From NCBI GenBank assembly GCA_951812955.1, contig OX638340.1:608001-672000 (forward strand): 64,000 nt of DNA, given 5' to 3'. Positions 9,750-64,000 of the stretch are shown here, in pieces (positions within the stretch are counted from its first letter, which is position 1; the number at the start of each line of letters is the position of its first letter). The DNA comes from an uncultured Gemmatimonadota bacterium. Its GTDB lineage: Bacteria; JAAXHH01. The position numbers and the translations under genes are program-made. Under the pieces are notes generated by a model. That model saw only the letters and a list, made by a program, of their open reading frames with translations. It had not been told where the DNA came from and did no database searches.

Positions 9750-9757
9750 GGGCGAAC

Positions 9758-11007: not shown

Positions 11008-11346
11008 TTACTGACCGATCTTATCCACGGCTTCCGCCTGGGTATCGTGGATGGAAATGATCTTGTCAAATCCGCTGATTTCGAAGACTTCACGGATCGG
11101 GTCCGACAGGGAGCACAGCGCGAAAGCGGCATTCCGCTTCTGAAGCAATCTAGCGATCAGCAGGATGACCCTCAGCCCGGCGCTGCTTATATAGGACAGC
11201 GCTCCGAAATCAAGCAACACCTTGCTGTCGTCTTCCGCAATGGCGCCGTTAAGCGCATCCTCGAATTCCCGGGCGTTCGCACCGTCGATTCGACCTTCAA
11301 CCTTCGCAATCAGTACCTCGTTTGCTCGGTCGACACTGATCTCCAT
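11008..11346 (-). CDS. STAS-domain anti-sigma-factor antagonist (SpoIIAA/RsbV-like).
   Basis: 112 aa. The conserved phosphorylatable Ser context is LDFGALSYISSAGLRVIL, matching the DSSGL motif. A strong SD (AGGGGGA) lies 9 nt before the ATG. Confidence 0.8.
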   Translation of the reverse strand: MEISVDRANEVLIAKVEGRIDGANAREFEDALNGAIAEDDSKVLLDFGALSYISSAGLRVILLIARLLQKRNAAFALCSLSDPIREVFEISGFDKIISIHDTQAEAVDKIGQ

Positions 11347-45025: not shown

Positions 45026-46786
45026 TCAGATTCGCATCAGGTCAGAAACGTCCAATTCAGTTCTGGGCTGGTAGGGTTTGAGAAAACGCATGATCTCTTC
45101 CGACGTGGGCAGGTCCAGGGCTTCGCGGGTTATGGTCTTGAGCTCCTCATAGTCCGCCGAACGGATAAGGCTCTTGATCTCGGGGATATCGATCGGACTC
45201 ATTGAAAGCTCGTCAACGCCTAAACCCAACAGTATGCAGGCTGCAAGCGGATGAGCCGCCATGGCGCCGCAGACACCTACCCAGATATCGTTGTCGTGTG
45301 CGGCATCGATAATCGATGCGACCAGGCGGAGAACCGCCGGGTGGCATGGATTATACAGGGAGGCGATGCTCGGATTGCCCCGATCGGCCGCTACCGTGTA
45401 CTGGATCAGGTCGTTCGTGCCGATGCTGAAAAAGTCCACTTCCTTCGCCAGATCCTGGGCCGTCAGCGCGGCCGAAGGGATTTCGACCATGATCCCGATC
45501 GACATCGATTGATCGACAGGCACACCCGCCTCCAGCAACTCGTCCCTCGCTTCGTTAAAAAGTACCTTTGCCCTTCGGAGTTCATTTAATCCGGATATCA
45601 TTGGAAACATCAGACTTACGTTACCCTCTACACTGGCCCTCAGGATGGCTCGTAACTGTACCTTGAACATTTCCGGCCGATCAAGGCAGAGCCGGATGCC
45701 CCGTTGTCCAAGGGCGGGATTGGCTTCGTCAGGCATCTGTTTGGGCATCTTGTCCGCACCGAGATCCAGCGTGCGTATAATCACGGCATGCGGGGCCATG
45801 CGCTGGGCGATTTTCAGATAAGTCCGGGTCTGTTCATCTTCGGAAGGCAATTCGTTACCCACCAGGTACAGGAATTCGGTACGATACAGGCCGATCCCGT
45901 CCGCACCGTGATTCAAGACGTCTTCCAATTCAGCCGGCAGCTCGATATTGGCCGAAAGCTCGATGCGCCTGCCGTCCCGCGTCTCTGCCGGCAGGTCATG
46001 GAGCTCCTGCAGTTCATGCTCCAAAACTGATAACTGGGATTTCGTTTCCCTGTACCGGCTGATCGTTTCCGGATCCGGATCGAGATGGACCAGCCCGCTG
46101 TTGCCGTCGATAATGATCGTCATTCCGTCTGAAATTTCCTGCGTGGCGATGTTCGCGCCTACCACCGCCGGCACGGCCAGACCGCGGGCGACGATCGCCG
46201 TATGGGACGTCTGGCCTCCGGCGTCGGTGATGAAGCCGCACACCGCGTCGCGATCGATTTCCGCGGTGTCCGAAGGGGACAGGCTGTGGGCTACGAGCAC
46301 AGTCTCTCCCTTCATGTTCTCGATCTCCGTGTGCGCGCTACCCGTGAGCTTGGCCAACACCCGGTAGTGAACGTCTTCGAAATCTGCGGTCCGTTCTCGG
46401 AAGAATGGATTCGCAATGGAGGAGTAGCTGGCAATCCATCCTCGCATCACATCGTCGAAAACATACTCCGCGTTGGCCTTCTCCCGACGAATACGCACGA
46501 TGGTGACATCGACGACCTCCGGATCTTCAAGCACGGCCTGGTGGGTACGGAAGATCTTCAGGATGTCCTGGTCGATATCTACCGCGATGCGGCGCTGCAG
46601 TTGGGTCAGGTCGTCCAGGGCCTCATCGACCGCGGTCTTGAAGCGCTTGATTTCCGCTTCAACTTTGTCAGAGGAAATCTGACGCTGGTGAATGGCGGCG
46701 AAGCGGCGATTGTAAACTAAAGCGCGGCCGATGGCTATGCCTGGTGATGCCGGAATGCCTTTCAGCACGCGGTGCTCATCGCTCAT
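45026..46786 (-). CDS. ptsI: PTS Enzyme I (phosphoenolpyruvate-protein phosphotransferase).
   Basis: GGQTSHTAIVARGLAVPAVVG (phospho-His region) and the PEP-utilising TIM-barrel blocks. 586 aa. Confidence 0.9.
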   Translation of the reverse strand: MSDEHRVLKGIPASPGIAIGRALVYNRRFAAIHQRQISSDKVEAEIKRFKTAVDEALDDLTQLQRRIAVDIDQDILKIFRTHQAVLEDPEVVDVTIVRIRREKANAEYVFDDVMRGWIASYSSIANPFFRERTADFEDVHYRVLAKLTGSAHTEIENMKGETVLVAHSLSPSDTAEIDRDAVCGFITDAGGQTSHTAIVARGLAVPAVVGANIATQEISDGMTIIIDGNSGLVHLDPDPETISRYRETKSQLSVLEHELQELHDLPAETRDGRRIELSANIELPAELEDVLNHGADGIGLYRTEFLYLVGNELPSEDEQTRTYLKIAQRMAPHAVIIRTLDLGADKMPKQMPDEANPALGQRGIRLCLDRPEMFKVQLRAILRASVEGNVSLMFPMISGLNELRRAKVLFNEARDELLEAGVPVDQSMSIGIMVEIPSAALTAQDLAKEVDFFSIGTNDLIQYTVAADRGNPSIASLYNPCHPAVLRLVASIIDAAHDNDIWVGVCGAMAAHPLAACILLGLGVDELSMSPIDIPEIKSLIRSADYEELKTITREALDLPTSEEIMRFLKPYQPRTELDVSDLMRI

Positions 46787-47051
46787 TACACGCCTCCCGG
46801 TCCCTGTCGAACATATCGGTTATCGCCTCTATCGCAGCCGTTTCGTCCGGGCCTTCGATTTCCACCGTAATGGAACAGCCGTGTTCTGCAGCCAGCATCA
46901 TTACACCCATGATGCTCTTTCCATTAACCGGCACTTCGTCCTTGACCAGCGTGATATCCGATTCGAATCGGGAAGCCAAGCGGACCAGTTGTTCGGCGGG
47001 TCGCATGTGCAACCCTTTTCTATTCTTAACGGTAACGGTTTTCCGTACCAA
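46776..47051 (-). CDS. ptsH: Phosphocarrier protein HPr with both His15 and Ser46 contexts.
   Basis: GLHMRPA (His15) and NGKSIMGVM (Ser46). 91 aa. Overlaps the ptsI start. Confidence 0.85.
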   Translation of the reverse strand: MVRKTVTVKNRKGLHMRPAEQLVRLASRFESDITLVKDEVPVNGKSIMGVMMLAAEHGCSITVEIEGPDETAAIEAITDMFDRDREACNER

Positions 47052-47089
47052 GGCGCTGCCCGATTCATTCAGACGTAGGTGAGATGCTT

Positions 47090-48073
47090 CTATTCGTAAT
47101 CTTCCCTGCGGTACCTGACACGCTTGCCTTCCTTCATGACCTCCAGCACACGCTGATTCAGTGCCGACGCCGGGTTAATTCCCACTACCTTCAGGAGGTA
47201 CCTGAGCGCGATCACCTCGGATACGACAGTCAGATTCTTACCGGGATTGATAGGTATACGGACAAAGGGAAGTTCCGCGTCGAGTAACGTAGTGGTCTTC
47301 TCATCAAGCGCCGTACGTTCATAGTCGCCGTCGTTGTTCCAGTCTTCCAGATTCACCACCACTTCGATCCGCTTGCGCAAGCGGATGCTCCGGATGCCGA
47401 ACATGCGCGTTACGTCGATAATCCCGACACCGCGAATCTCCATGAAATGTTGCGTGACCGTGTTGCTCGTACCCATGACGATGCCGCGCCGGATTCGGTA
47501 CGCGGTGACCACATCGTCCGCAACCAGCCTGTGACCCCGTTCGACGAGATCGAGGGCCGTCTCGCTTTTGCCGATTCCGCTGCGTCCCGTGAACAGCAGG
47601 CCTACCCCATACACGTCGACCAGGGCGCCGTGTATGGTCGACATCGGCGCGAAATAGGGTTCCAGGTACTCGACCAGGGAATGTACGAAGGCGTCCGTAC
47701 TCAGCGTGGTCCCGAGGACGGCGGTCTCGAATCGCTCGGCGGTTTCGGTCAGTTCCCGAGGCGGATCCATGCCCTTCGTTATGACCATGCAGGGGACGCC
47801 CAGTTCGAACATTCTGTCCAGCGACGTGGACCGCTGTTTCCCGGACAGACTCTTCAGGTAGGTTAATTCGGTTTCTCCCAGGATTTGAATCCTGTTATTG
47901 GAAAACCGCTCGACATATCCCGCCAGCGCGAGTCCCGGCCGGTTCGTCTCCGCGTTTGTGATCTTCCTGGAAAGTCCCGTTTCACCCGTGAGCGGGGACA
48001 GTTTCAGATCGACCTGTTCTACCAGGGTCTTGATCAGCAAGGCGCGCGATTTCAAGGGCGATACCGTGGCCAT
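47090..48073 (-). CDS. hprK: HPr kinase/phosphorylase.
   Basis: P-loop GRSGIGKSE, LVADDVV, EIRGVGIIDV. 327 aa. Confidence 0.85.
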   Translation of the reverse strand: MATVSPLKSRALLIKTLVEQVDLKLSPLTGETGLSRKITNAETNRPGLALAGYVERFSNNRIQILGETELTYLKSLSGKQRSTSLDRMFELGVPCMVITKGMDPPRELTETAERFETAVLGTTLSTDAFVHSLVEYLEPYFAPMSTIHGALVDVYGVGLLFTGRSGIGKSETALDLVERGHRLVADDVVTAYRIRRGIVMGTSNTVTQHFMEIRGVGIIDVTRMFGIRSIRLRKRIEVVVNLEDWNNDGDYERTALDEKTTTLLDAELPFVRIPINPGKNLTVVSEVIALRYLLKVVGINPASALNQRVLEVMKEGKRVRYRREDYE

Positions 48074-48155
48074 CGTTATTTATCAAGGGGAAAGGTATGT
48101 ACCTGGTCCGGCATGGCAAATCCGGCTATATCGATACCGGCGCATGCCTGTCCGC

Positions 48156-48461
48156 TTACTGATTACGCCTAGTCCTGTGATCGTGCAACTTGCCATTGTG
48201 TTTTTTTATCTGGCTTTCCATCTTGTTGACCGCCTGATCGAGTGCGGTGTAGGCTTCGGCGTTCTCCTCCTTGCTGGTCAGGATGTGTCCCCCGACGTGT
48301 ACGTTCAGCTCAACCATATACCGGTATTTTTCCTGTGAGACGATAAGATCCGCACTCAGGATATTGTCGCTGTAACGGTTTAAACGGTCGATCTCTCTAT
48401 CCGCGTGCTGCTTGTATTCCTCTGCCAATTCGCAGTGGCGGGCCGTCATGGTTTTCTGCAC
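48156..48461 (-). CDS. hpf: Ribosome hibernation-promoting factor / sigma-54 modulation protein (short HPF/RaiA type).
   Basis: 101 aa with the HPF fold pattern. Sits immediately downstream of rpoN, as in the canonical locus. Confidence 0.8.
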   Translation of the reverse strand: MQKTMTARHCELAEEYKQHADREIDRLNRYSDNILSADLIVSQEKYRYMVELNVHVGGHILTSKEENAEAYTALDQAVNKMESQIKKHNGKLHDHRTRRNQ

Positions 48462-48493
48462 GTTCGCCTCCCTTCCCTGTGTTGCCGATCCGG

Positions 48494-49951
48494 TCAGATC
48501 CTTCTGCGCATTCGCGCAATGGGTATTCCCAGGTTCTCGCGGTACTTCGCCACCGTTCGCCGCTTGATCTGCACGCCCTCCTTCGATCGCAGGATGTCCT
48601 CGATAGCCTGATCACTCAGTGGCGCGTGCGCGTCTTCTTCATCGATGATCTGTGCGATCCGGTCCTTGACAGTCTTTGTTGCCAGTTGGCCGTCCGGGAC
48701 GTCTTCGGCGTTATTCGACGTTTTTTTCTTCAATCGACCATCGAAGAAAAACCTCAGCGCGTAAATCCCTCGGGGAGTCTGTACGTACTTGCCTTGCGTC
48801 GCCCGGCTGACGGTCGTTACATGCAGGCCTGCCTCGTCTGCCACCTCCTGAAGAATCATCGGTCTGAGAAAGGACAGGCCCGCATCCAGGAACTCGCGCT
48901 GGGCTTTAACGATGCAGTTCGTCACTTTCAACAAGGTAGACCGACGTTGTTCAATGGAGCTCACGAAGTGATTCGCTTCGGTCAACTTTCGCCTCACGTA
49001 CCGCCGATCCTCTTCTGTGGAATGCTCATGACGGCTCAGGATGACCTGGTACGCACGGCTGACTCGCACCCGGGGGAGGTTGCGGTCGTTGAGATACGCG
49101 ATGTATTCTCCCTCCACTTTTTCAACAATCAGGTCGGGGTGAATGGCAATTACGGATGAATCCCCGTAGGCAAGCCCGGGGTGGGGATTGAGTCCCGCGA
49201 CCACATTCAAGGCATCCCCGATTTCTTTCTCGGATGCCCCCATCTTCTTGCGAATCGAAGCGATGCGCCGCAATTTGACGTCGCGCCAGTTTTCGGAAAT
49301 CATCCGGAACGCGAGCGTATCATGCAAGTCCAGTGCATCCAACTGAAGCATGAGACACTCTCGCAGGTCTCGCGCGCCCACACCGGTAGGTTCGAGGGTC
49401 TGTACGATCTTCAGGACCCGTTCCGCCTCGTCGAACGGTAAGCCAGACTCCAGCGCCAGGTCAAGCAACGGAACATCGAACAGGCCGCTGTCGTTCAGAT
49501 TTCCGATCAGGTATTCACCGATCTCAAGATCCCGTGTGGACAGATCCAGGAGACGCAATTGCTCGACGAGGTACTGTGTGAGCGTTGCCCCCGACTTCCC
49601 CTCGCGTTCAAGGATGTTTTGATCTTCCCGTTTTTCAGACTCTTCGCGGGAATCCATCTGGTTGTGCATGCCGTCTTGTATATAGGCATCCCAGTCGATT
49701 TTATCCCGATCGGACGTCATTTCTCCAGGGTCGTCCTCACGCGTCGCATCCGGTTCCTCCGCCAGAGATTCGCCCGCTGAATCTTCCTCCGCCTCACGTG
49801 TCTCGTCTTCAAGTTCCAGCAGCGGATTCTCCTCGATTTTCGCCTTGATCTCCTGTTCGAGTTCCACCGTGGTGTACTGCAGCAGTTTGAGCGAGTACAT
49901 CAACTGTGGAGAAAACTGCTGTCTTGTCTGCGGCTGAAGCTGGAATTCCAT
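48494..49951 (-). CDS. rpoN: RNA polymerase sigma-54 factor.
   Basis: N-terminal Gln/Leu-rich activator-interacting region (MEFQLQPQTRQQFSPQLMYSLKLLQ). C-terminal RpoN box ARRTVAKYRE. 485 aa. Confidence 0.9.
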   Translation of the reverse strand: MEFQLQPQTRQQFSPQLMYSLKLLQYTTVELEQEIKAKIEENPLLELEDETREAEEDSAGESLAEEPDATREDDPGEMTSDRDKIDWDAYIQDGMHNQMDSREESEKREDQNILEREGKSGATLTQYLVEQLRLLDLSTRDLEIGEYLIGNLNDSGLFDVPLLDLALESGLPFDEAERVLKIVQTLEPTGVGARDLRECLMLQLDALDLHDTLAFRMISENWRDVKLRRIASIRKKMGASEKEIGDALNVVAGLNPHPGLAYGDSSVIAIHPDLIVEKVEGEYIAYLNDRNLPRVRVSRAYQVILSRHEHSTEEDRRYVRRKLTEANHFVSSIEQRRSTLLKVTNCIVKAQREFLDAGLSFLRPMILQEVADEAGLHVTTVSRATQGKYVQTPRGIYALRFFFDGRLKKKTSNNAEDVPDGQLATKTVKDRIAQIIDEEDAHAPLSDQAIEDILRSKEGVQIKRRTVAKYRENLGIPIARMRRRI

Positions 49952-49966
49952 GGTCTTGCCTTCCGG

Positions 49967-50740
49967 TTACTCCAGGCGGAACCGCTCGCCGAGATAAATA
50001 CGGCGCGCTTCTGGGTCATCGGCCAGGTGTTCGGCCGTTCCGGACACGTAAATCCGCCCTTCGGCCATGATATAGGACCGGTCCGTGATCTGTAACGTTT
50101 CCCGGACCATGTGATCCGTGACCAGTATGCCCAGGTTTCTTTTCTTCAGGCGCCCGATGATCTCCTGTATATCCTCCACGGCAATGGGATCGATGCCGGC
50201 AAATGGCTCATCGAGCAGTATGAATTTCGGTTCGGTTACCAGTACCCGGCTGATTTCGGTTCTACGCCGTTCGCCCCCCGATAGGGTGTAAGCCTTGTGC
50301 TTGGCCAGGTGCGCAATGCCGAAATCCTCCAGTAATGCCTCCATCTTCTGTCGCCTGGCCTTGCGGGACATGGGCAGGGTCTCGAGAATGGACATCAGGT
50401 TCTGTTCCACCGTCATCCGGCGAAAGATCGAGGGTTCCTGGGCCAGATACCCAATCCCGACGCGGGCCCTGCGGTACATGGGCCAACGTGTGATTTCCCT
50501 GCTCTTCCCGGTTTCCAGGTCATCGATCAGTACCCGTCCCGATCCCGGCTTGATCATGCCTACGATCATGTAAAACGAGGTGGTCTTCCCTGCTCCGTTG
50601 GGCCCGAGCAGTCCGACCACCTCGCCCTGGTCTACACGTAAGCTCACATCGTCGACCACGCGGTGATTCTGATAGGATTTGACCAGGCTCTCAGCTCGCA
50701 GGCACCGCACGAACCCTCCGTTTTCAACGGCTTCCGTCAT
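49967..50740 (-). CDS. lptB: LPS export ABC transporter ATPase LptB.
   Basis: Walker [10 protein letters not shown]. Signature LSGGERRR. Position within lptC-lptA-lptB-rpoN. Confidence 0.9.
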
Positions 50741-52037
50741 CGTCTTCCGGTGTGAGATAGGTCCCGTCGACCCCGCCGTCCGCGTTCACCTTGACCGGCT
50801 CGCCGCCATCCAGTTCAATCACGATTTCTTTCGCCCGGACCACGTTGTGGCCGGACGGCCCGCTTTCGAGCGTAGACGGATTGTAGTTGCTCACCGCATT
50901 CCCGTTCGCAGTTATGGTCCTGACCGCTTCGTCGTCGAAATCCACGATCATGCTACGGCCTTCAATAGTGCTGCGGTCCGTTCCTTCCGTCTTCTCCACG
51001 GCATAGGTACCCTTGGCGTTCCCGGTTACCAACGCTTTTGTAACCTTGCCGTCTTCCATTTCGAGGACGATTTCATCCCCGGCGATCTCGCTGTGGACGC
51101 TCCGAATCACCGGATTCCCGATCAGATCGATCTTCAGGCCTTCGCCGTCGAAGCGCAAGGTATCGCAAATCCCTTCCAGCGTACCCTTCACGACTTTGAC
51201 CGAATCGAACACATCGGCAGTTCGATCTTCGAATCCATAGGTCATTCCGTTCCCCGTCACCTCGATTTCGCCTTCGTCGCTTCCCAGACTCCTTACCATT
51301 CGGGGCGAGCCACTGAATCGCGCGTTTTGCGTGGCTTTGTAGTACTCCGCGTGGTCGCAGTAAATTGTCACCCCTTCCCCTTCGTCCACCACCACGACGG
51401 AATCCTCAGCCAGCGCTTTCAGCAGGGTGTTGGATTCGGTGAAATAGTACTCGAGACGAAAGCCCTCGATGTTTATCCTGCTGCTGCCCTGTTGCCAGGT
51501 CATAGCCGGCTTGCCCGTCGCGACAGCGCGATGCGGTTCCTGGGTAAATACCATTCTGTGGCCGGTCAGCACCACGCCGTCCAACTCGTCGTCGAGCTTG
51601 ACCCGCCCCGCTCCGATAGCCCGTTGATCCTGTTCGTAGTATACCGCGGCTTCGGCGCTGAACGTACTGGTCTCGCGTACCATGCGCACGTTTCCGGCGA
51701 GATGCACGATTCCGTTCAGGCGGTCATAACGTACCCTGTCACTGGTCAGCACGGTATTTCCGTGCGACAGTCGCACGGAACCGGCCAGGTCGAAAACCTC
51801 ATCGACACCGGTAGCCCGGAGGACGCCCGCTTCTTCGATTTGCACCGGCTCGCGCCGCTCCTGGCCCGCCGCCCGCGGAGTAAATAACGCAGCGAGACAG
51901 CAGACTGAAACCAGCCACGCGACATGCCTGTTTACAAGGTAGAATATACCTGAATTCCGGCTGGACGTCAAGGGTGTCTCCCCGGCGTGACGGCTATGGA
52001 AGCGATCCGAGTCGACGGGGTCATCGCGACTGCGCAT
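50724..52037 (-). CDS. lptA: LptA/OstA-family periplasmic LPS-transport protein. Unusually long, with tandem OstA-like repeats. Start uncertain.
   Basis: Repeated OstA-like beta-jellyroll segments (e.g. [10 protein letters not shown]...GNVRM; GHRMVF). Hydrophobic segment [20 protein letters not shown]. The ATG at 52037 overlaps lptC by 17 nt. The alternative ATG at 52133 would overlap it by 113 nt. Confidence 0.65.
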
Positions 52038-52632
52038 CCGGTAAAAGCTGGCCTTTAATGTTGCGTCGTATAGTCCATTGGTGCATGCCCGGATCGGCTT
52101 CAAAGCCGTCGCCTGATATGATATCCCGGTCACTGGTCAAACGAACCGCGGCATCCGTTTCAATCACGTTCGCCGCGTTTATCCAGGTCAGGGAATCGGT
52201 TTCCAGGGTGCCTCGCTCCAAACTGTAGACGTTTACATCACCCCAGACACGCAGGTCGTGGGTCTGTCCGTCGATTTCACCCCGCTCGGCTTCCAGCGTC
52301 GAGGCCATTCCGCCGTCTTCTTCGAAGAATTCAACGAAAACGCCCTCGTCGATGACGGTTACGTTGGTTTCGGAGTAATACAGCCGGTGTCCGGCCCTGA
52401 TCGTGGCTTCCTGCCTTCCATCCCGGCTAAGGTAGATCGTCGTGTTCCACGCTTCCTGGTCCGGCGACACATCCTCCGTGCCGTTCTCCGGAGCCAGCTG
52501 ATCGACGGGCCGGCAGGCAGTTGAACATATGATCGCAACCACGACCAGACTTGCCAGAAAAAAGCGGGAAAGCCTTTCCGGTGCAGGGAGATTCAGGCGG
52601 GGCCAAACTTGTGAGAGATGCGAATTCGACAT
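52021..52632 (-). CDS. lptC: LptC-like membrane-anchored LPS export protein.
   Basis: 203 aa. Single N-terminal TM anchor (FFLASLVVVAIICSTAC) followed by a beta-jellyroll. Located upstream of lptA and lptB. Confidence 0.6.
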   Translation of the reverse strand: MSNSHLSQVWPRLNLPAPERLSRFFLASLVVVAIICSTACRPVDQLAPENGTEDVSPDQEAWNTTIYLSRDGRQEATIRAGHRLYYSETNVTVIDEGVFVEFFEEDGGMASTLEAERGEIDGQTHDLRVWGDVNVYSLERGTLETDSLTWINAANVIETDAAVRLTSDRDIISGDGFEADPGMHQWTIRRNIKGQLLPDAQSR

Positions 52633-52668
52633 GACGGATTATACGCGATATCATCCGGCCAGGCAAGA

Positions 52669-53622
52669 TCAAGTTGGGCGGTCAGCAACTTGCCCGGCCT
52701 GCCTGGACGCCTTCCACCTGTCGTGCATCCATACCCACTGCGCCGGCGTTCTCCTGATGAACCGTTCCAATTCCGCGGTATACTCGCACGTCGTCCTTTC
52801 TACGTCATCCGGATTTCCTCCGGCGGGCCGGATCGGCGGGCGGACCGTTACGAGATGCGTATCGTCCGGGAGACGATGTATGGCCATGGGAACGATTGGC
52901 GCGCCCGACCGGTAGGCCAGCACCGCGGGGCCGGTGGGGGTTCTCGCGGGCCAGCCGAAAAACGGTACCGTGATGCCGGTTCCCCGTGTATCCTGATCCA
53001 CCAGCAACCCAACAACATGACCCTTCTTCAGCGCGCGAAACACGGCGGTGGCTGCCCTGTCGCGGCTCACGACGTTCAATCCGCCGCGCATCCTGTTTTG
53101 CATCAGGAGCGCGTCCAGCCTGGCATCGTACAGCGGCGCGGCCACCACGGTAACGGCAAATCCCTTGAGCGCCAGGTACGTACCCATCAGTTCGAAGTTC
53201 CCCAGGTGGGCGCTCACCGCCACGACACCTCTCCCCTCGCCAAAGGCCGATTCCAGGTACGGAAGTCCGTCGGCCCTGACCAGGTCGTCCACGTTTTCCG
53301 ACGTGACCCGCGGTATACGGGCGACATCCACGACGTTCCGTCCCAGTTCCCGGAAGACGCTCCGGCCCAGTTGCCTGATCTGCCTGCGGGACTTTTCGTC
53401 ACCGTAGGCCAATGTGAGATTGTCAAGGGTCAGGCGCCTGGACCCGCGGGCGGCCAGGTACGCCACGGCACCGGTCCAGCCGCTGACCGTCAAGGCCCAC
53501 CGTCTTGGAACCGCATTCATCAGGGCGATGAACGCACGCACCGCGTGATAGATGGCAACATTGCGCAGGCGTTTGATCAGGGAGGCCACGGCCGCACCCC
53601 AATGAAATTCAAAAGGCCGCAT
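52669..53622 (-). CDS. Lipid A biosynthesis lauroyl/myristoyl acyltransferase (LpxL/HtrB family).
   Basis: LpxL-family blocks (SAHLGNFEL, LVDQD). Internal ATG (MRPFEF) chosen to avoid overlap with kdsA. Confidence 0.7.
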   Translation of the reverse strand: MRPFEFHWGAAVASLIKRLRNVAIYHAVRAFIALMNAVPRRWALTVSGWTGAVAYLAARGSRRLTLDNLTLAYGDEKSRRQIRQLGRSVFRELGRNVVDVARIPRVTSENVDDLVRADGLPYLESAFGEGRGVVAVSAHLGNFELMGTYLALKGFAVTVVAAPLYDARLDALLMQNRMRGGLNVVSRDRAATAVFRALKKGHVVGLLVDQDTRGTGITVPFFGWPARTPTGPAVLAYRSGAPIVPMAIHRLPDDTHLVTVRPPIRPAGGNPDDVERTTCEYTAELERFIRRTPAQWVWMHDRWKASRQAGQVADRPT

Positions 53623-54439
53623 GGGGCCGCACGACTTCGTCGATCGCCTGCAACCGTTCCAGAAGAGGTTCCAGACGGTCGAGAGGCAACATGCTCGCGG
53701 CGTCGCATAGTGCCTCGGAGACACGGGGATGTGTTTCTATAAAAACGGCGTCACAGCCCGTGGCCACGGCCGCACGGGCGAGTGGCTCGATAAACTCGGG
53801 CGTCCCTCCACTCGGTTCGCTGCTCGGGCGCCCATACAGCCTTACGACATGGGTGGCGTCGAATACCACGGGATATCCGATCCGCCGCATGATGGGCAGC
53901 GACCGCATATCGGCGACGAGATCGTGATATCCGAAAGAGACCCCGCGATCCGTCAGAAGGATTTTCCTGTTACCTGTACTCTCGATTTTTGACACGACCG
54001 AAGCCATGTCTCCCGGGGCAAGAAACTGCCCCTTTTTCACGTTGACGGGTTTCCCGGTGCGGGCCAGGGCAAGGGTCAGTTCCGTCTGCATGGACAGATG
54101 CGCGGGAAGCTGCAGTATATCGAGAACTTCCGCGGCCGCGTCTACTTCCTGGAGACTGTGCACATCCGAGAGCACCGGAACGCCCAGGTCACGCACTTTT
54201 TGCAGCACGCGCAACCCCTCCTGCAGACCGGGGCCCGCGTAATAGTCCACGGAGGAGCGATTCGCCTTCGCGTAAGATGATTTGAAAACGAGCGGCATGC
54301 CCAGGCGGCCGGCTACCGCCATCAGGCGTTCAGCGGTCTCCATGACCACGGCTTCGCTTTCGATTACGCAGGGACCGGCAATCAAGGCCAGTCGCCTTCC
54401 GCCGCCGATGGCCGCGTCTCCGACGAGGATCTCCTTCAT
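53609..54439 (-). CDS. kdsA: 3-deoxy-8-phosphooctulonate synthase (KDO-8-P synthase).
   Basis: KdsA blocks LIAGPCVIES, FKSSYAKANRSS, VHDATH, GLD. 276 aa. Confidence 0.9.
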   Translation of the reverse strand: MKEILVGDAAIGGGRRLALIAGPCVIESEAVVMETAERLMAVAGRLGMPLVFKSSYAKANRSSVDYYAGPGLQEGLRVLQKVRDLGVPVLSDVHSLQEVDAAAEVLDILQLPAHLSMQTELTLALARTGKPVNVKKGQFLAPGDMASVVSKIESTGNRKILLTDRGVSFGYHDLVADMRSLPIMRRIGYPVVFDATHVVRLYGRPSSEPSGGTPEFIEPLARAAVATGCDAVFIETHPRVSEALCDAASMLPLDRLEPLLERLQAIDEVVRPHAAF

Positions 54440-55206
54440 GATGGTCCTTCCTCGGCGGCCAGCCTGCGCTCCGCCTTTTCGAGGTCCCCGGGCACGTCCA
54501 CTCCGAGCGGGGCGTATCCGGTCGGTTTCACCGCGATCCGGTATCCGTTTTCCAGGGCCCGCAATTGTTCCAGTCGTTCGATGCGCTCCAGCGGCGTCGG
54601 TTCCAGCTCGGCGAACGTGAGCAGGAAATCCCGCCGGTATCCATAGAGCCCCACGGTATTGTAGTACCGGTGTTCGCGCAGGTATTCCCCGTCCGGATGC
54701 TCACCCGGCCAGGGCAGCGGTGAGCGGGAAAAGTACAGCGCCAGGCCCTGTCCGTCGAACACCACTTTGCCCATGTGGGGATTGAGCAGGTCCTCCGGCC
54801 TGGTGATCCGGTGTGCGAGGGTCGTCATGGGCACTTCCGGATCATCGACCAGGGGCCTTACCACCGTTTCGATCGCTTCGGGTGTGATCAACGGTTCATC
54901 TCCCTGTATGTTCACGATCACGTCCGAATCCAGACCCCGGACCGCCTCGGCCAGCCTGTCCGTTCCGCTGGGATGGTCGCGCGAAGTCATGATCGGTTCG
55001 CCGCCGAACCCGCGGACCGCGTCAGCGATACGCCGGTCGTCGGTGACGACATATAGATCGGTAAGGCAGCGCGCCCGGACGGACCGCTCATACGTGTGTT
55101 GTATCATCGGTTTGCCCAGCAAGGGGACCAGCGCCTTGCCGGGGAAACGCGTAGAAGCGTAGCGGGCCGGTATGAGACCCGTTATTCTCCGGATTTCGGA
55201 TCCCAT
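54436..55206 (-). CDS. kdsB: 3-deoxy-manno-octulosonate cytidylyltransferase (CMP-KDO synthetase).
   Basis: LIPARYASTRFPGKAL, NIQGDEP. 256 aa. ATGA overlap with kdsA. Confidence 0.85.
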   Translation of the reverse strand: MGSEIRRITGLIPARYASTRFPGKALVPLLGKPMIQHTYERSVRARCLTDLYVVTDDRRIADAVRGFGGEPIMTSRDHPSGTDRLAEAVRGLDSDVIVNIQGDEPLITPEAIETVVRPLVDDPEVPMTTLAHRITRPEDLLNPHMGKVVFDGQGLALYFSRSPLPWPGEHPDGEYLREHRYYNTVGLYGYRRDFLLTFAELEPTPLERIERLEQLRALENGYRIAVKPTGYAPLGVDVPGDLEKAERRLAAEEGPS

Positions 55207-55213
55207 AACACCT

Positions 55214-55498
55214 TCAGATGACCTTGGGTACCGTGAAATGGCCGCGATCGGACGCAGGAGCGTTCCGTAACGCTTCCTCCTGGGTCAGCGACGCCCCGAC
55301 TTCGTCTTCGCGGAATACGTTCTTGAGATGCAATACGTGCGAAGTCGGACCTGCGCCTTTCGTGTCGAGCGTATTCAGCTTCGCCATGTACGCGAGAATG
55401 GCGTTCAGCTGGTCCACCAGCTGTTCCCGGTCTTCATCCGAGAACTTCAGGTGCGCCAGCGTCGCGACATGGTCCACATCCTTGACTGTTACCGTCAT
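55214..55498 (-). CDS. gatC: Asp-tRNA(Asn)/Glu-tRNA(Gln) amidotransferase subunit C.
   Basis: About 95 aa. GatC pattern (VAHLAKLKFSDEE...L...M). Internal Met (MTVTVKDV) chosen as the start. Confidence 0.65.
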   Translation of the reverse strand: MTVTVKDVDHVATLAHLKFSDEDREQLVDQLNAILAYMAKLNTLDTKGAGPTSHVLHLKNVFREDEVGASLTQEEALRNAPASDRGHFTVPKVI

Positions 55499-55540
55499 GG
55501 CATACCTCGTTTCCGGGCATCGTTTCACGAATGACCCGTG

Positions 55541-58010: not shown

Positions 58011-59468
58011 ATGCTGGACTGTCTGACGGAACGCGGAACCGTGTCCGCCGACGTTGAAGCCTTCGAAAACGCACTGGCGTGCTCGCCAGAGAGCCCCTAC
58101 GGCCCGCTGGGAGCGCGATTCTCCGTCAAAAAACCGATTTATGTGGTCAGGGCTCCAGCGCGGCTGGACTGCATGGGTGGCATAGCGGACTACAGTGGTT
58201 CACTGGTTTGCGAGATGACACTCGACCAGGCCGTTTTGTTGGGCATCCAGGCACGGGACGACCGGAAGGTGGTCATACACAGCGCGGGCGTCGACGTACT
58301 CGGCATGTCGCCGGACGTTACGCTGGCCCTCGACGACCTGGCACCCGGTGGAAGTACCGTAGACTACGATACCGTAAAACGTAGTTTCTCCCGGACGCCG
58401 GAATCGGCCTGGGCAGCGTACGTGGCCGGGGCTTTCAGCGTGTTGCAGGGGGAAAGGCACGTGGATCGTTTCCCCCACGGCGCCACCATCGTGCTCGTGA
58501 GCGACATCCCGCTTCGGGTGGGCGTCTCTTCCTCAGCCGCGCTGGAAATCGCCGCCATGCAGGGACTGAACCTGCTCTACGGGACCGACCTTGACGGGAT
58601 GACGCTGGCCGTCCTTTCCCAGAAGGTGGAAAACCACGTGGTCGGCGCGGCCTGCGGCATCATGGACCAGGTCACCTGCGCCATGGGGACCCGGGACTGC
58701 CTGCTTTCCCTGTTCTGCCAGCCCCATACCGTACAGGAACAGATTCCCTTGCCGGAAGGGGTTCGTTTTATCGGTATAAACTCCGGCGTCCGTCGGGAGA
58801 TCAAGAGCTCGCGGTATACAAACAGCCGAATCGGCGCGTTCATGGGCCTTGCGATCATACGGGATAACCTGCGTTCCGGCAACGGAACGGCCTCAAATCC
58901 CCGCCTTGGTTACCTGTGCAATCTGTCCACCAGAGAATACGTGGATTTCTACCGATCCCTGCTGCCATCAAGCATCCTGGGGCGGGAGTTTACGCGGCGG
59001 TACGTAACCACGCCCGACCCGGTGACGACCGTTGACCCGGCGGTACGGTATATGGTGCGCAGCCGCGTGGAACACCCGGTTTACGAACACCGCAGGGTGA
59101 AAGAATTCACCGAATGTATCCGTTCGGCAGGAACCACGGACAAACCGGGACTTCTCGAGCGGGCAGGCAGGTTGATGTATGCCTCCGACTGGAGTTACAC
59201 GCACCGCTGCGGACTCGGCTGCGCCGAGACGTCCTGGATCGTCCGCGAGATCAGGAAACTGGGCGTTGAAGCGGGATTCTATGGCGCCAAGATAACGGGA
59301 GGCGGCGCTGGGGGAACGGTCGCCGTAGCCGGAGACGATCGCATGTTCGGCCACCTGGACAACCTGCTCGAGCGCTACGGTGAATCCACCGGTATCGAGG
59401 CACGGCTCTTTAACGGGACTTCGTCGGGCGCACTGGAATTCGGGCACCGAGTCTACCGAATAACCTGA
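58011..59468 (+). CDS. GHMP-family sugar 1-kinase (galactokinase-like). Substrate unknown.
   Basis: Galactokinase-type N-terminal motif APARLDCMGGIADYSG. GHMP ATP-binding motif PLRVGVSSSAALEIAAM. 485 aa. Confidence 0.75.
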   Translation: MLDCLTERGTVSADVEAFENALACSPESPYGPLGARFSVKKPIYVVRAPARLDCMGGIADYSGSLVCEMTLDQAVLLGIQARDDRKVVIHSAGVDVLGMSPDVTLALDDLAPGGSTVDYDTVKRSFSRTPESAWAAYVAGAFSVLQGERHVDRFPHGATIVLVSDIPLRVGVSSSAALEIAAMQGLNLLYGTDLDGMTLAVLSQKVENHVVGAACGIMDQVTCAMGTRDCLLSLFCQPHTVQEQIPLPEGVRFIGINSGVRREIKSSRYTNSRIGAFMGLAIIRDNLRSGNGTASNPRLGYLCNLSTREYVDFYRSLLPSSILGREFTRRYVTTPDPVTTVDPAVRYMVRSRVEHPVYEHRRVKEFTECIRSAGTTDKPGLLERAGRLMYASDWSYTHRCGLGCAETSWIVREIRKLGVEAGFYGAKITGGGAGGTVAVAGDDRMFGHLDNLLERYGESTGIEARLFNGTSSGALEFGHRVYRIT

Positions 59469-59493
59469 GCGGGTTGCACCGGATTCGAGGGAG

Positions 59494-60420
59494 TTGCAGG
59501 CATTGAATCGTATTCGAAAAGCGGTCATACCCATTGCGGGACACGGCATCCGCATGATGCCGGCGACCCGTGCGGTACGCAAAGCGCTGTTTCCCATCGT
59601 GGACGACCGCGGACGGGTACGTCCCGTACTTCAGTTGATCATCGAGGAAGCGCTCAACGCGGAAATCGAGGAAATCGGCCTGGTGATCGCACCGGAAGAC
59701 AAGGCCCATATTGGCGCCTACTTCTCGCGGTTGCCCGGCCCGTTAAAAAAAGTAATTGGAAATCACGAAGAATTGCTGGAAGCGGCCGAGTTGCCGGGTC
59801 GTATTGCGGATAAACTGACCATAATCACCCAGGATCGCCCCAACGGACTCGGCGATGCCGTACTCCGAGCGGCGCCCTGGATCGGCGGCGACCCTTTCCT
59901 GGTCATGCTCGGTGACCACCTGTACCTCAGCCATGAAAAAAGATGCTGTGCGCGCCAGTTGCTGGACGCCTACGCGGATCTGCAGGCCCCGGTATCGGGT
60001 TTGATCCGCAAGCCCGTAGATGCCATCGGACATTTCGGCACGGTTTCAGGTCGACCCGAACCCCGCTCGAAAGGGCTTTATGCCCTTGACGCCGTGGTGG
60101 AAAAACCGGATATAAACCTTGCGCGTGACCGGTTGCGCGTGGAGGGGCTGCCGAAAGATACGTATTACTGCTGGTTTGGCCTGCACGCCATGAAGCCTGA
60201 CATCTTCGACTGCCTGGCGCGGATGGAAAGGGACGGCGCCGCGGATGGCGGAGAACTGCAGCTGACCGGGGCGCAGGCCATGTTATCGAAGCAGCGAACA
60301 ACCTACGGACTGGAAATCAACGGCGAGCACTTCGACACAGGCTCGCCGCGTGGATACGTCGATGCCGTCACGGCTTTCGCCGATCCCGCCGGTTTTTCCG
60401 GGAATCCTGACAACCGGTAA
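59494..60420 (+). CDS. Sugar-1-phosphate nucleotidyltransferase (UTP-glucose-1-phosphate uridylyltransferase / GalU-like fold).
   Basis: N-terminal KAVIPIAGHGIRMMPATRAVRKALFPI (G-x-G-T-R-x-x-P-x-T-like) and the nucleotide-sugar pyrophosphorylase core. Immediately downstream of the GHMP kinase. Confidence 0.75.
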   Translation: MQALNRIRKAVIPIAGHGIRMMPATRAVRKALFPIVDDRGRVRPVLQLIIEEALNAEIEEIGLVIAPEDKAHIGAYFSRLPGPLKKVIGNHEELLEAAELPGRIADKLTIITQDRPNGLGDAVLRAAPWIGGDPFLVMLGDHLYLSHEKRCCARQLLDAYADLQAPVSGLIRKPVDAIGHFGTVSGRPEPRSKGLYALDAVVEKPDINLARDRLRVEGLPKDTYYCWFGLHAMKPDIFDCLARMERDGAADGGELQLTGAQAMLSKQRTTYGLEINGEHFDTGSPRGYVDAVTAFADPAGFSGNPDNR

Positions 60421-60533
60421 AACACCGGAACGTGCGCGACCGATCGCCGACCCTGAATCATTCGAACAGTTAACCCCAAGGCGGCACAGTTCGCCTTTCA
60501 TTTCGTTCAAAACACGAAAAGGAATCCTAGACC

Positions 60534-61250
60534 ATGTCTGTACCGGAAGCTCCATCACGAGAAACGCTCGAATCCCTGCTCATACCGAGCACCGCTACGC
60601 TGACTTCCGTGCTCACGGAGTACGGGCTGTATAACACCTTCATGCACGACGTCACACCGCTCGAACCCGGCGCGCGCATGGCGGGACCGGCATTTACCCT
60701 GCGGTACATACCCGGCCGGGAAGACATCACGCACGTGCCCGTGGACAATCTGACGGATATGCAGCGCATCGGCATCGAAAGCATTCAGCAGGGCGAGGTG
60801 CTCGTGATCGACGCACGGGGTGATACCCGAGCCGGCGTCATGGGCGACATCCTCGCCACGAGAATCCAGCAGCGCGGGGCCGCGGGGGTCGTCAGCGACG
60901 GCGCATTCCGGGATACTCCGGCCATCGTGGAGACCGGAATGGCCGCGTACGCCCGGACCATGAACGCCCATAACAGCAAAAGCGTACATTATCCGAGTGA
61001 CATTCAGCGTCCCATCGCCTGCGGCGGTGTAGCGGTTTTCCCTGGAGATATCGTCGTGGGAGATACAGAAGGCGTGGTGGTCATTCCGCGCCACCTGGCC
61101 GAAGAAGTGGCGGCCAAGGCCGTCGCGCAGGAAGACCGGGAAGTGTTCATCCTGGAGAAAATCCAGCAGGGACACAGCATCATCGGCGTATACCCGCCCG
61201 ATGAGCAAACCCTCGCGGAATACGAGGCGTGGAAGGCTAAAAGGGGCTGA
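60534..61250 (+). CDS. RraA-family protein (RNase E inhibitor RraA / 4-hydroxy-4-methyl-2-oxoglutarate aldolase-like).
   Basis: RraA blocks (GDIL, GAAGVVSDGAFRD, GDIVVGDTEGVVVIP). 238 aa. Confidence 0.7.
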   Translation: MSVPEAPSRETLESLLIPSTATLTSVLTEYGLYNTFMHDVTPLEPGARMAGPAFTLRYIPGREDITHVPVDNLTDMQRIGIESIQQGEVLVIDARGDTRAGVMGDILATRIQQRGAAGVVSDGAFRDTPAIVETGMAAYARTMNAHNSKSVHYPSDIQRPIACGGVAVFPGDIVVGDTEGVVVIPRHLAEEVAAKAVAQEDREVFILEKIQQGHSIIGVYPPDEQTLAEYEAWKAKRG

Positions 61251-61254
61251 ACGC

Positions 61255-63570
61255 TCAGCCGGTGGCCAAATCCGCGATTCGTTGCAGGGCCACCACCGCC
61301 AGCAGTCTCTCCTCGGCGTGCAGGGCCCTGTTCCGGCCTTCGGATTCCAGGCCCGACAGTACCCTGTACGCTAGTTCCACCCCTTCCAAACCCGCCGAAG
61401 AATCTCCCGCAGGCGCCGCATCCACGGCAGAAACGTCCGGTAAATCGGTACGCACCGTGCGAAGTACTTCCCTTGCGATTTCGACGAGTTGCTTCAGCAT
61501 CTCACCGGTTTGTTGCCGTTCGAAAGCGGCCATCGCCCGGTCGACTGCGGCCGTGTACCGATCCCTCGCATCTCGCTCGACATGTGACCAGCCGCCCAGT
61601 TGCCGGCGGACGGACCGGAATAACCGTACCGTCGACCGGTCCTGGTTCATCTCACCGGCCTGAAGCAACTGATACAGGAGATCCGGGGCGCCAAGGAGAT
61701 GCCCCGCCGACATGATCAGTACACCGCGTTCGAGACTGGTTTCGCTGGTCCTGATGAGGTCCTGAAGCCGGCTCAGTATCCCGGTATTGCCCATTCTGGC
61801 CAGCGTTTCCAGGGTAGTCTGGACGATCGCGGGGTCCCGTTCGTGTTCGAGCAGGGCTTCCAGCGCCGTCTCAACGCGCCGGTCCCCGATTCGATCGAGG
61901 GCGATTACGGCGCTTCGCCGGATGCCGGGGCGTTCATCGTGAAGCAGGGTCACCAGGATGTTGAGGCTGAGCGACGACGGCACCGAGCCCAGGGCCTCCA
62001 CGGCCTCCTCGGCGATGTCAGACGATGGGTTTCCCACGCATTCGAGCAGTGGGTTCACGGCCTCTTCCGCGCCGATCCTGCTCAGGGACTGCACTGCTTC
62101 CCGCCGCACGTTGCGATCGCTGTCATCCAGCAACGCGATCAACTCGTCCACAGCCAGGTGACTTCCGGTTTCGCCCAGTTCACGGGCCGCCCGGGCCCGG
62201 ACCGTTGGATTGCTGGATTTTCCCATGCGCACCAGGTGCCAGAGGGTCGCAATGGGATTCCCCTTGCGCACCCGGTTGATCACGTCACGGGGGGAGACCT
62301 GCGAATCGGAGACCAGGCGGGCCAGCAGGCCCATGTAGGATATTCGAAGCACCCCGTTGGCGAGGAAGAGGTATTGCAGTCCCGCGAAGGTGTAGCCGAA
62401 GAAGGATACGGCAGGTATGGAGGTACACAGTTCGGCGGCTATTCCACCGATTATGGCGCCGCACGCCGCGCATCCTCTCGATACCGCGGAGTAGCATCCC
62501 AGGAATGCGGAGCGGTTGGCCGCCGGGGCCGTTTTGACGATGAGATTGAACCGGGCCGTACCCCATCCCGCGCTCATGCTGCCGCCCCAGATCTGCACCA
62601 GCGGCACCATGACCCAGTAGTTGTCCAGCGTTACGAATCCCCATCCCAGCGGGAAAATGGCCAGTCCCGTGGCGGTAAGCGACATGACCGGCTTGTAACC
62701 GTACTTGTCCGCCAGGTAGCCCCAGAATGGATTCATGATGATCGTCGCGATAGTTTGTATTGCCGAGAAAACCGCGATCTGGGCGTAGGATACTTCGAGC
62801 GTCCGCAGCATGTAGACCGTGAAGAATGGCGCGGCGATCTGGGCGATGACGAGCCGCCCTGAAACCAGGAACATCAATTTGCGAAAAGGAGCGTGCCGGA
62901 AGGGGAGACGAAGCAGCTGGTTCGGCGGGACGCGCTCGCCCCTGCTCTTTCGCGGTTCGGGAATGCACGACCAGGCCCAGATCCCGAATCCTGAAAAGAC
63001 CACGGCCACGATGAATATGATACTGAAACCCTCCTGCGAGTCGCCCGCGGCGTATGTACTCAGGAAGAATCCCGCGCACACCGACGTGATCAGGCCGGCG
63101 GACGCCGTCAGGCTGCGCTGGCGCGCGACGAAGCGGCCGCGGATCTCGTCGGGAATCAGGTCGGTCAGCCAGGACTGACGCGCCGGAGAAACCAGGGACA
63201 TGGCGGCTTTCGATAAAGCGATGCAGGCTATGAGCGCCAGTAGTTGGTTCCCTTCGAAGAAGAGAAAGGGAATGAAGGCGATGGGCAGCCAGAGGGATGT
63301 GCTGACGCCATTGGCAAGCAGGCACAGCGTTTTGCGCCGGGGCAGGCGTTCGATAAGTAGCGGAGAGAAAGCCTGTAACAACTGACCGATGGAAATGGAG
63401 GCGGAAATAAAGCCGATCATGGCGGTGGATGCACCGAGATGCAGGGCGTAACCGGTGGTGTAAACGCCGGTGGTTATCGCGGAATGGACCGACTCGAGCA
63501 TGCCGTTCACGTTCCACATGCGCATTCCGCGCGCCGTCTGCAACCGGGTCAGTTTTCTCTCTTGTTGCAC
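61255..63570 (-). CDS. Fusion protein: an N-terminal MFS transporter (about 12 TM helices, about 430 aa) plus a C-terminal HEAT/PBS-lyase-type alpha-solenoid domain of about 330 aa.
   Basis: MFS-like loop motif (GYLADKYGYKP). Repeated HEAT units NPTVRARAARELGETGSHLAVDELIALLDDSDRNVRREAVQSLSRIG, ...DIAEEAVEALG..., ...HDERPGIRRSAVIALDRIGD. Confidence 0.65.
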   Translation of the reverse strand: MQQERKLTRLQTARGMRMWNVNGMLESVHSAITTGVYTTGYALHLGASTAMIGFISASISIGQLLQAFSPLLIERLPRRKTLCLLANGVSTSLWLPIAFIPFLFFEGNQLLALIACIALSKAAMSLVSPARQSWLTDLIPDEIRGRFVARQRSLTASAGLITSVCAGFFLSTYAAGDSQEGFSIIFIVAVVFSGFGIWAWSCIPEPRKSRGERVPPNQLLRLPFRHAPFRKLMFLVSGRLVIAQIAAPFFTVYMLRTLEVSYAQIAVFSAIQTIATIIMNPFWGYLADKYGYKPVMSLTATGLAIFPLGWGFVTLDNYWVMVPLVQIWGGSMSAGWGTARFNLIVKTAPAANRSAFLGCYSAVSRGCAACGAIIGGIAAELCTSIPAVSFFGYTFAGLQYLFLANGVLRISYMGLLARLVSDSQVSPRDVINRVRKGNPIATLWHLVRMGKSSNPTVRARAARELGETGSHLAVDELIALLDDSDRNVRREAVQSLSRIGAEEAVNPLLECVGNPSSDIAEEAVEALGSVPSSLSLNILVTLLHDERPGIRRSAVIALDRIGDRRVETALEALLEHERDPAIVQTTLETLARMGNTGILSRLQDLIRTSETSLERGVLIMSAGHLLGAPDLLYQLLQAGEMNQDRSTVRLFRSVRRQLGGWSHVERDARDRYTAAVDRAMAAFERQQTGEMLKQLVEIAREVLRTVRTDLPDVSAVDAAPAGDSSAGLEGVELAYRVLSGLESEGRNRALHAEERLLAVVALQRIADLATG

Positions 63571-63573
63571 GAT

Positions 63574-64000
63574 CTACAGTCTCCGGTTCCTGGACAGTAT
63601 CCAGCTTACCGCCGTACCGACGGCAAGATTCACGCCCAATGCCATCGGACTGATCCACATGAAGCTGACTGGGTCGCTCCCATCGGGCAGCATGCCGAAC
63701 AGCGGCCCGGAGAAGGCGATCAGCGAAGCGGTGAGGATGCCGCACACGGCGCCCGCGACGACGCCGGCCGGGCGGGCGAACGGCACGAACAACGCGAAGA
63801 CGAACAGGGCGAAAATGGGCGTCGTCAGCAGGTTCGAAGTCTTGTTGGTTACCGCCGTGATGTTGCCGGGCACCAGTTCCATCAGCGAGCTCGCGCCCAC
63901 GACAATGGCGCCGATGACGAATGCGAGCGATTTCGCCGTCCGCGTCAGCTGTTTCTCGGTCGCCGGGGATTTTCTGAACCGGCCGATGAAATCCGTCGAA
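63574..64000 (-). CDS. 3' portion of a polytopic membrane transporter (sodium:solute symporter-like C-terminus). The 5' part lies beyond the window edge.
   Basis: The frame is open to the window end. Hydrophobic helices (TTPIFALFVFALFVPFARPAGVVAGAVCGILTASLIAF...). The family call is tentative. Confidence 0.4.
   Translation of the reverse strand, partial: STDFIGRFRKSPATEKQLTRTAKSLAFVIGAIVVGASSLMELVPGNITAVTNKTSNLLTTPIFALFVFALFVPFARPAGVVAGAVCGILTASLIAFSGPLFGMLPDGSDPVSFMWISPMALGVNLAVGTAVSWILSRNRRL

Follow-up and report, generated by a model that had tools for sequence, protein, structure and literature searches.

The 64,000-nt stretch of DNA analyzed here (the window; contig OX638340.1 of an uncultured Gemmatimonadota bacterium, positions 608,001 to 672,000) carries near its end a gene that joins an MFS transporter to a C-terminal HEAT-repeat solenoid. 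In the list of open reading frames (ORFs) this MFS-HEAT gene lies on the minus strand at 61255..63570 and encodes 771 aa, with a GTG start at 63570 and a stop codon at 61255-61257. The start is supported by the N-terminus LTRLQTARGMRxWN, which the alignment showed to be common to the family. An earlier note on this DNA had read the product as about 12 transmembrane (TM) helices with MFS-type loop motifs followed by a HEAT domain of about 330 aa. The ORF list, Pfam, hydropathy, and AlphaFold2 agreed on the transporter part. Two further ORFs over the gene, 61699-62862 (plus strand, 387 aa) and 62285-63745 (minus strand, 486 aa), are shadows in high-GC DNA and not genes.

Residues 1-420 (62311..63570, minus strand) were assigned to the MFS domain by Pfam, hydropathy, AlphaFold2, and Foldseek. 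The MFS_1 profile (PF07690, clan CL0015) scored 97 bits against a cut-off of 33.4. Hydropathy gave 12 hydrophobic segments with K/R-rich cytoplasmic (even-numbered) loops, and together with AlphaFold2 and Foldseek it supported two bundles of six TM helices, 12 in all, with the N- and C-terminus in the cytoplasm. Motif A (GxxxD[RK]xG[RK][RK] in loop 2-3 and/or loop 8-9) was recognizable at both sites. Loop 2-3 holds a variant form, ERLPRRK, at residues 74-80, and loop 8-9 holds GYLADKYGYKP (WGYLADKYGYKP) at residues 284-294, a segment almost unvarying across the family. A beta hairpin (residues 388-395) lies in the TM11-12 loop.

The transporter is followed by a linker, residues 421-450 (62221..62310, minus strand; 'NPIATLWHLVRM'), which the family alignment and AlphaFold2 resolved into two short helices, 427-435 and 439-451 in the model. 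Next comes a PBS-lyase-type HEAT solenoid, residues 451-630 (61681..62220, minus strand), with five regular 31-residue units starting at 452, 483, 514, 545, and 577 and a degenerate sixth near 608. HEAT_2 (99.8 bits, cut-off 27.7), HEAT_PBS (48.6 bits), and HEAT (43.9 bits) each exceeded their own cut-offs, and the tandem helix-turn-helix units of about 31 residues were predicted to adopt a solenoid fold. The profile search that the earlier note had called for therefore placed both parts above Pfam cut-offs. Its domain size needs correcting: the soluble part spans about 350 aa, of which HEAT repeats make up only about 190 aa (451-630). The rest is a helical tail, residues 631-771 (61258..61680, minus strand), with five long helices, a disordered loop (711-724), a conserved Y633, and a C-terminal EExLLAV motif. 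No other architecture was found to contain this 140-aa, non-repeat bundle of long helices, which is specific to the family.

A full-length structure prediction, also proposed in the earlier note, was made with AlphaFold2 from a 31-sequence family alignment. It reached a mean pLDDT of 86.2 and a pTM of 0.68 (89.1 and 0.81 for the C-terminal domain alone) and placed 12 TM helices within residues 9-416, followed by a continuous, all-helical soluble domain at 427-770. Foldseek matched the MFS part to MFSD2A, YegT, MelB, NupG, and FLVCR1 with target TM-scores of 0.7-0.79. Its structural neighbors were diverse (MFSD2A, YegT/NupG, MelB, SPNS2, FLVCR1, and NorA) at 11-17% identity. Every NCBIfam subfamily model fell far below its cut-off, the best being TIGR00883 (ProP family; 38 vs 443 bits), such that neither structure nor profile returned anything beyond generic MFS matches as a guide to substrate. 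For the solenoid domain, the closest natural structural relatives in the fold search were CpcE/F and MpeQ. We regard the fusion and its folds as practically certain. The single polypeptide combines a 12-TM MFS secondary transporter with a rigid six-unit PBS-type HEAT solenoid, capped by the family-specific helix bundle.

The fusion is not peculiar to this genome. A first word-index search returned about 70 full-length homologues that share the Pfam architecture, at 33-99% identity and 750-840 aa in length; several are encoded on complete 3.5-3.9 Mb chromosomes. The distribution survey suggested in the earlier note found fused relatives in 170 genomes, scanned at one genome per species, and a metagenome scan added 388 stretches. 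All fused relatives examined measured 750-857 aa. The description of such fusions as uncommon holds for MFS proteins generally and fails within this family, where they are common. The family is sizeable and uncharacterized, and databases give it only as 'MFS transporter'. Annotation of this genome should give the gene as an MFS transporter that carries a HEAT-repeat regulatory domain at its C-terminus; the label PBS lyase is wrong.

We divided the family into clades according to how closely each member resembles the window protein. Clade A, that of the window, comprises 23 loci at 79% identity or more. Clades B (58-61%), C (48-52%), and D (39-44%, Armatimonadota) are progressively more distant, and clade E (26-34%, about 48 loci) belongs to the Armatimonadota groups Capsulimonadaceae, Fimbriimonadales, and Chthonomonadales. 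The window DNA is approximately 95-96% identical to two loci (L001 and L008) over 11-12 kb and to a third (L009) over shorter segments of 3.2 and 3.6 kb. These three come from metagenome-assembled genomes (MAGs) labeled 'bacterium' or 'Gemmatimonadetes bacterium APA_bin_41'. The labels of close relatives are split between Gemmatimonadota and Latescibacterota, which makes the phylum assignment uncertain, and MAGs of clades B-D are labeled Armatimonadota, Latescibacteria, and others.

Gene neighborhoods in the sister clades revealed a recurrent companion. A PstA/DarA-type PII-like receptor for cyclic di-AMP (c-di-AMP; PF06153, CdAMP_rec) was first seen immediately upstream of the MFS-HEAT gene in two distant members. 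Of about 21 distinct loci in clades B-D, at 39-61% identity to the window protein, 16 proved to have it as the next gene upstream in the same orientation (L002/L003/L096, L030/L097, L090, L093, L006, L031-L034, L036, L038, L039/L100, L095, L099, and L037). Where genes were called, the spacing between the two ranged from a 4-nt overlap (L090) through 23 nt (L093) and 71 nt (L002) to 100 nt (L006), and the widest overall is about 120 nt. The receptors scored 85-116 bits against PF06153 (cut-off 27) and aligned over their full length with Listeria monocytogenes PstA (4RWW, E=5e-20). Tested against the patterns T-x-L-x3-GGFL-x2-GN-x-T and GGA, they retained both c-di-AMP-binding motifs, TGGFLxAGN and GGA (PMC12435418). 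They fell below the NCBIfam DarA equivalog cut-off (95-105 vs 140 bits). Judged from these profiles and motifs, the receptor assignment is solid.

The receptor is also the only neighbor that paired loci have in common. Its family was present in all 15 paired loci compared, and no other real flanking family occurred in more than three. The next two apparent families, in 7 and 6 loci of clade D, were rejected as antisense shadow ORFs of the receptor gene itself. No receptor lay near the MFS gene in the 23 clade-A loci, the roughly 48 clade-E loci, or about 48 loci of unfused MFS genes. On a neighbor-joining (NJ) tree of 92 non-redundant fused proteins, drawn without bootstrap support values, paired loci occupied almost all early branches of the subfamily to which the window gene belongs. 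Adjacency was absent from three derived branches, namely L007/L035, L004/L098, and clade A. Because paired loci fill nearly all the early branches and the losses are derived, the pairing is most parsimoniously read as ancestral in the subfamily.

Several lineage-specific arrangements were observed alongside the pair. One Fimbriimonadaceae MAG (L037) carries the receptor gene at 5210-5539 followed by two MFS-HEAT paralogues, at approximately 5490-7877 and at 7938-10331, a tandem duplication. A clade-B locus (L002) has a stand-alone 160-aa response-regulator receiver protein, encoded at 10586-11068, between its MFS-HEAT and RraA-like genes; this gene is not part of the window's arrangement. In 11 clade-E loci the MFS-HEAT gene is directly preceded by an uncharacterized ORF of about 237-250 aa. 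By longest-ORF coordinates, about 7 of these loci (L057, L061, L073, L079, and L083 from Fimbriimonadales, plus L062 and L068) show a 4-nt overlap between the stop of this ORF and the MFS-HEAT start. Other clade-E neighbors (endonuclease IV, a small membrane protein, and a lipoprotein) were considered as partners and set aside as lineage synteny only.

The window presents a different neighborhood: neither here nor elsewhere in its clade does a receptor gene lie beside the transporter gene in the same orientation. Upstream on the same strand is the 3' part of an SSF symporter gene (63574..64000), clipped at the window end and assigned from orthologue profiles and synteny. The SSS-like neighbor reported in the earlier note was borne out by the full-length 501-aa orthologue in L001 (PF00474, 147 bits; TIGR00813, 210 bits). 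Reading the junction (63571..63590, minus strand) showed a TAG stop at 63576-63574, a 3-nt spacer, and a GGAG at 63584-63581, 10 nt ahead of the MFS-HEAT GTG. No promoter-like or minus-strand terminator-like site was detected in 60400-64000, including this junction, and the SSF and MFS-HEAT genes are probably co-transcribed. The SSF gene stands upstream of MFS-HEAT in 22 of the 23 clade-A loci and in one further locus (L027). On the other side, a convergent gene for an RraA-like protein of the aldolase/decarboxylase (HMG-aldolase) family (60534..61250, plus strand; PF03737, 120 bits; PRK08245, 283 bits) comes to within 4 nt of the MFS-HEAT stop codon. An RraA-like gene lies downstream in 27 loci, all in clades A and B, where every locus keeps this adjacency, also across the translocation.

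How the receptor and the transporter came apart can be read from a basal member of clade A. A single 1,408,301-nt contig contains both this member (P0024) and a second locus (L088). The latter keeps the order IPPT - polysaccharide deacetylase - aminotransferase - receptor, exactly as found upstream of the pair in the clade-B locus L002. At this second locus, however, a GFO/IDH/MocA oxidoreductase gene comes after the receptor, with MFS-HEAT about 650 kb away. The ancestral IPPT - deacetylase - aminotransferase block is absent from the window. Throughout clade A and in L027, the MFS-HEAT and RraA-like genes form a block between the SSF gene and a GalU-like/galactokinase-like pair. The simplest history suggested by this synteny is that the block was translocated behind the SSF gene in the window's lineage. 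Taken jointly, an ancestral operon and its break-up in clade A seem highly probable to us.

The pair on the far side of the block lies at 58011-60420 (plus strand). It encodes a galactokinase-like GHMP sugar-1-kinase (485 aa; TIGR00131, 152 bits, below the cut-off) and then a GalU-like UDP-sugar pyrophosphorylase (308 aa; TIGR01099, 147 bits, below the cut-off). The two genes resemble a salvage pair leading from sugar-1-phosphate to nucleoside diphosphate sugar. They may have adjoined the SSF gene before the block was inserted, which hints at a cluster for sugar uptake and salvage.

Loss of the neighboring receptor left little mark on the solenoid. By the Nei-Gojobori method, ratios of nonsynonymous to synonymous substitution (dN/dS) in clade A were 0.076-0.093 for the linker plus HEAT region, 0.089-0.151 for the MFS domain, and 0.20-0.30 for the tail. 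Receptor-bearing clade B gave essentially equal values (0.077, 0.063, and 0.28, respectively). The HEAT region of clade A is clearly under strong purifying selection, and the solenoid therefore still functions there. We also compared about 147 positions, each at least 87% conserved in 15 paired members, and only 7 were fixed differently in clade A, four in the MFS domain (A125S, D171S, Q340R in TM10, and Y356F) and three in the HEAT region (R494Q, G497S, and L606I). Q340R (codon 62551-62553, minus strand) adds a positive charge in TM10 and could alter substrate or coupling. HEAT unit 2 carries R494Q (62089-62091) and G497S (62080-62082), both in its helix B. The positions of these two and of Q340R are invariant in the receptor-paired relatives. 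A search for signs that a binding surface had eroded found none, the 7 positions above being the only ones switched.

On balance, we favor a secondary transporter controlled through its cytoplasmic solenoid, ancestrally by a co-transcribed c-di-AMP receptor. The solenoid would act as a regulatory or docking module under the cytoplasmic face of the transporter. In paired relatives, the receptor would bind the solenoid or the cytoplasmic face of the transporter itself and switch transport according to the level of c-di-AMP. In clade A, the solenoid may be regulated by a partner encoded elsewhere, or may itself regulate the transporter. Docking or regulated transport had been floated in the earlier note, and the sister-clade operon lends the idea specific yet indirect support. 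Direct docking of the receptor on the solenoid, argued by analogy with glnK-amtB, sbtB-sbtA, and NTT-HEAT-cNBD, is a more tentative suggestion that we rate somewhat short of even. That transport depends on c-di-AMP, and in which direction it is regulated, we infer as well. Because c-di-AMP governs potassium and osmolyte transport in known systems (PMC10636490), an osmolyte-type substrate is a reasonable guess.

A number of observations weigh against this proposal. With only 7 of about 147 conserved positions changed in the absence of a nearby receptor, the conserved features of the solenoid appear independent of a nearby, and perhaps of any, receptor gene, which weakens receptor docking as its core role. 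About 48 clade-E loci keep the fusion with no adjacent receptor. Gene adjacency is evidence of functional linkage, not of physical binding, and any contact could fall on the MFS cytoplasmic face instead of the HEAT domain. PII-like proteins are trimeric and usually bind symmetric targets, and MFS proteins are typically monomers. A tblastn search of the 64-kb window for the receptor gave chance matches only. Word-index searches with clade-B and clade-A receptors, which require shared 5-residue words, did not find the gene on 3.5-3.9 Mb clade-A chromosomes whose MFS-HEAT genes are 81-99% identical to that of the window. A receptor turned up only in the most basal, P0024-type genome and on a few short contigs. 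These searches suggest that the receptor, left at its old site, was later lost in most of clade A. Neither a c-di-AMP riboswitch (ydaO) nor any other Rfam family was detected in the window or upstream of receptor-less loci. A motif scan for diadenylate cyclase across the window and all fetched loci found nothing convincing, with flanks too short to be informative.

The best-surviving alternative is that the solenoid works autonomously, as an intramolecular plug or sensor. Its input could be ionic strength, osmolarity, a small ligand on the concave face as in bilin lyases, or oligomerization. The receptor operon would then reflect shared physiology without contact, for example if receptor and transporter both serve osmotic or potassium homeostasis. 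This explanation gains from clades that keep the solenoid unchanged with no receptor at hand: constraint on the HEAT region and its conserved positions is the same in clade A, where no receptor was detectable, and clade E retains the fusion without a receptor neighbor. CpcE/F and MpeQ, the nearest natural relatives of the solenoid in structure, bind a small molecule, and MFS osmolyte transporters such as ProP have a C-terminal sensing extension, although the ProP-family match of the window protein is the far sub-threshold one given above. Against it, the tight and often overlapping receptor pair persisted while all other neighbors changed, as is typical of interacting pairs such as glnK-amtB and sbtA-sbtB, and HEAT solenoids are above all protein-binding scaffolds. 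We consider a fully autonomous solenoid possible but on the unlikely side.

A scaffolding role, in which the solenoid would tether the SSF protein, the RraA-like aldolase, or another cytoplasmic enzyme into a transport metabolon, is improbable. In its favor are the SSF gene ending 3 nt away in 22 of 23 clade-A loci and the persistence of the RraA-like gene beside MFS-HEAT throughout clades A and B, rearrangement included. Both neighbors are clade-specific, however, which makes the scaffold unlikely. SSF adjacency is limited to clade A and L027 and is a product of the rearrangement, and the RraA-like adjacency is limited to clades A and B and is convergent. Neither neighbor occurs in clades C, D, and E, yet the solenoid is conserved there. 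The earlier note had suggested a scaffold of this kind. An artefact, with separate MFS and HEAT-repeat genes joined by mis-assembly or sequencing error, is refuted by conservation of the fusion among homologues: nothing was found in its favor, though high-GC DNA here does give long shadow ORFs, and the same unbroken ORF recurs in well over 100 independent assemblies, including complete 3.5-3.9 Mb chromosomes, with a conserved linker and purifying selection across the junction.

Elsewhere in the window, 45026-55528 holds a diderm-type housekeeping block with genes for PtsI (enzyme I), HPr kinase, RpoN (sigma-54), and an LptA/OstA-like protein, followed, by synteny with L001, by lipid A acyltransferase, KdsA, KdsB, and GatC. 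A 595-aa protein encoded at 39054-40841 (plus strand) combines N-terminal lamin-tail domains (LTD, 95 bits) with a C-terminal FlgD-Ig-like domain and is probably secreted or surface-located.

What is new here is the conserved receptor/MFS-HEAT operon of the sister clades and its dissolution in the window's lineage; the architecture itself relates to known transporter-HEAT fusions and PII-regulated transporters. For a decade the field has acknowledged that the targets of PstA/DarA-type receptors are an open question, with reviews and papers from 2023-2025 stating no known partner. A gene pair that recurs across MAGs with different phylum labels ties this receptor to one transporter family and offers a concrete, cheaply testable candidate. 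As a tentative proposal, which we would put below even odds, MFS-HEAT proteins may be the membrane targets of PstA/DarA-type receptors in Armatimonadota, Latescibacteria-labeled lineages, and the window's wider lineage, with the HEAT domain as docking adaptor. If true, this would be the first membrane-transport target of such receptors and a third PII-transporter paradigm. It would also suggest a function for the widespread, uncharacterized architecture of transporter plus HEAT solenoid, including NTT-HEAT of cyanobacteria and Chlamydia. Together with NTT-HEAT-cNBD, it would point to a general design of transporter, HEAT adaptor, and nucleotide second-messenger sensor. The window's clade would then offer a natural experiment, with the adaptor retained after uncoupling or loss of the receptor.

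Among known systems, the solenoid shares its 31-residue repeat type and geometry with PBS-lyase HEAT-like proteins (CpcE/F, MpeQ, NblB, YibA, deoxyhypusine hydroxylase, and the alphaRep designs). Those proteins are soluble and stand-alone, whereas MFS-HEAT is a membrane fusion. Equivalog models for the lyases and NblB (CpcE, CpcF, CpeY, and NblB) gave only 22-42 bits against cut-offs of 220-600, a similarity at the level of the repeat, and the organism showed no sign of phycobilisomes.

The sister-clade receptor is a full-length match to Firmicutes PstA/DarA (PF06153; PDB 4RWW, 4WK1, and 4RLE) and keeps the nucleotide-binding motifs. The partner of the Firmicutes proteins was unknown for years (PMC10636490, PMC12802241), and papers from 2025 still call PstA partners unknown (PMC12435418, PMC12802241). 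A July 2026 preprint describes a weak, transient PstA-GlnR interaction in Staphylococcus aureus as 'the first protein target' (PMC13484208). In the searchable literature we found no paper that connects PstA/DarA with MFS or HEAT proteins, and none that describes a transporter target.

GlnK-AmtB and SbtB-SbtA supply the precedent for the gene pair: in each, a small trimeric PII-type protein is encoded beside, and co-transcribed with, the transporter that it gates, and SbtB binds c-di-AMP too (PMC8654305). AmtB and SbtA are trimers without a solenoid that are plugged directly by PII loops, whereas the target presumed here, an MFS protein, carries a HEAT extension. In contrast to both systems, the window's lineage has lost the adjacency.

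NTT-HEAT and NTT-HEAT-cNBD proteins, broadly conserved and functionally uncharacterized (Major, Embley and Williams 2017, PMC5381601), differ from MFS-HEAT in their transporter domain, which is TLC/NTT (PF03219). The window protein has no PF03219 match even at E<=1 and is not a member of that family. Their sensor is a cNMP-binding domain, downstream or fused, whereas that of the sister clades is a separate PII-like c-di-AMP receptor encoded upstream; the window locus, unlike NTT-HEAT-cNBD, has no adjacent sensor gene. Both families join a 12-TM transporter to a C-terminal HEAT_2/HEAT solenoid, often annotated 'PBS lyase', and NTT-HEAT, like the paired MFS-HEAT loci, has a nucleotide sensor module immediately adjacent or fused. 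NTT-HEAT is the closest published analogue of the MFS-HEAT architecture and follows the same design logic.

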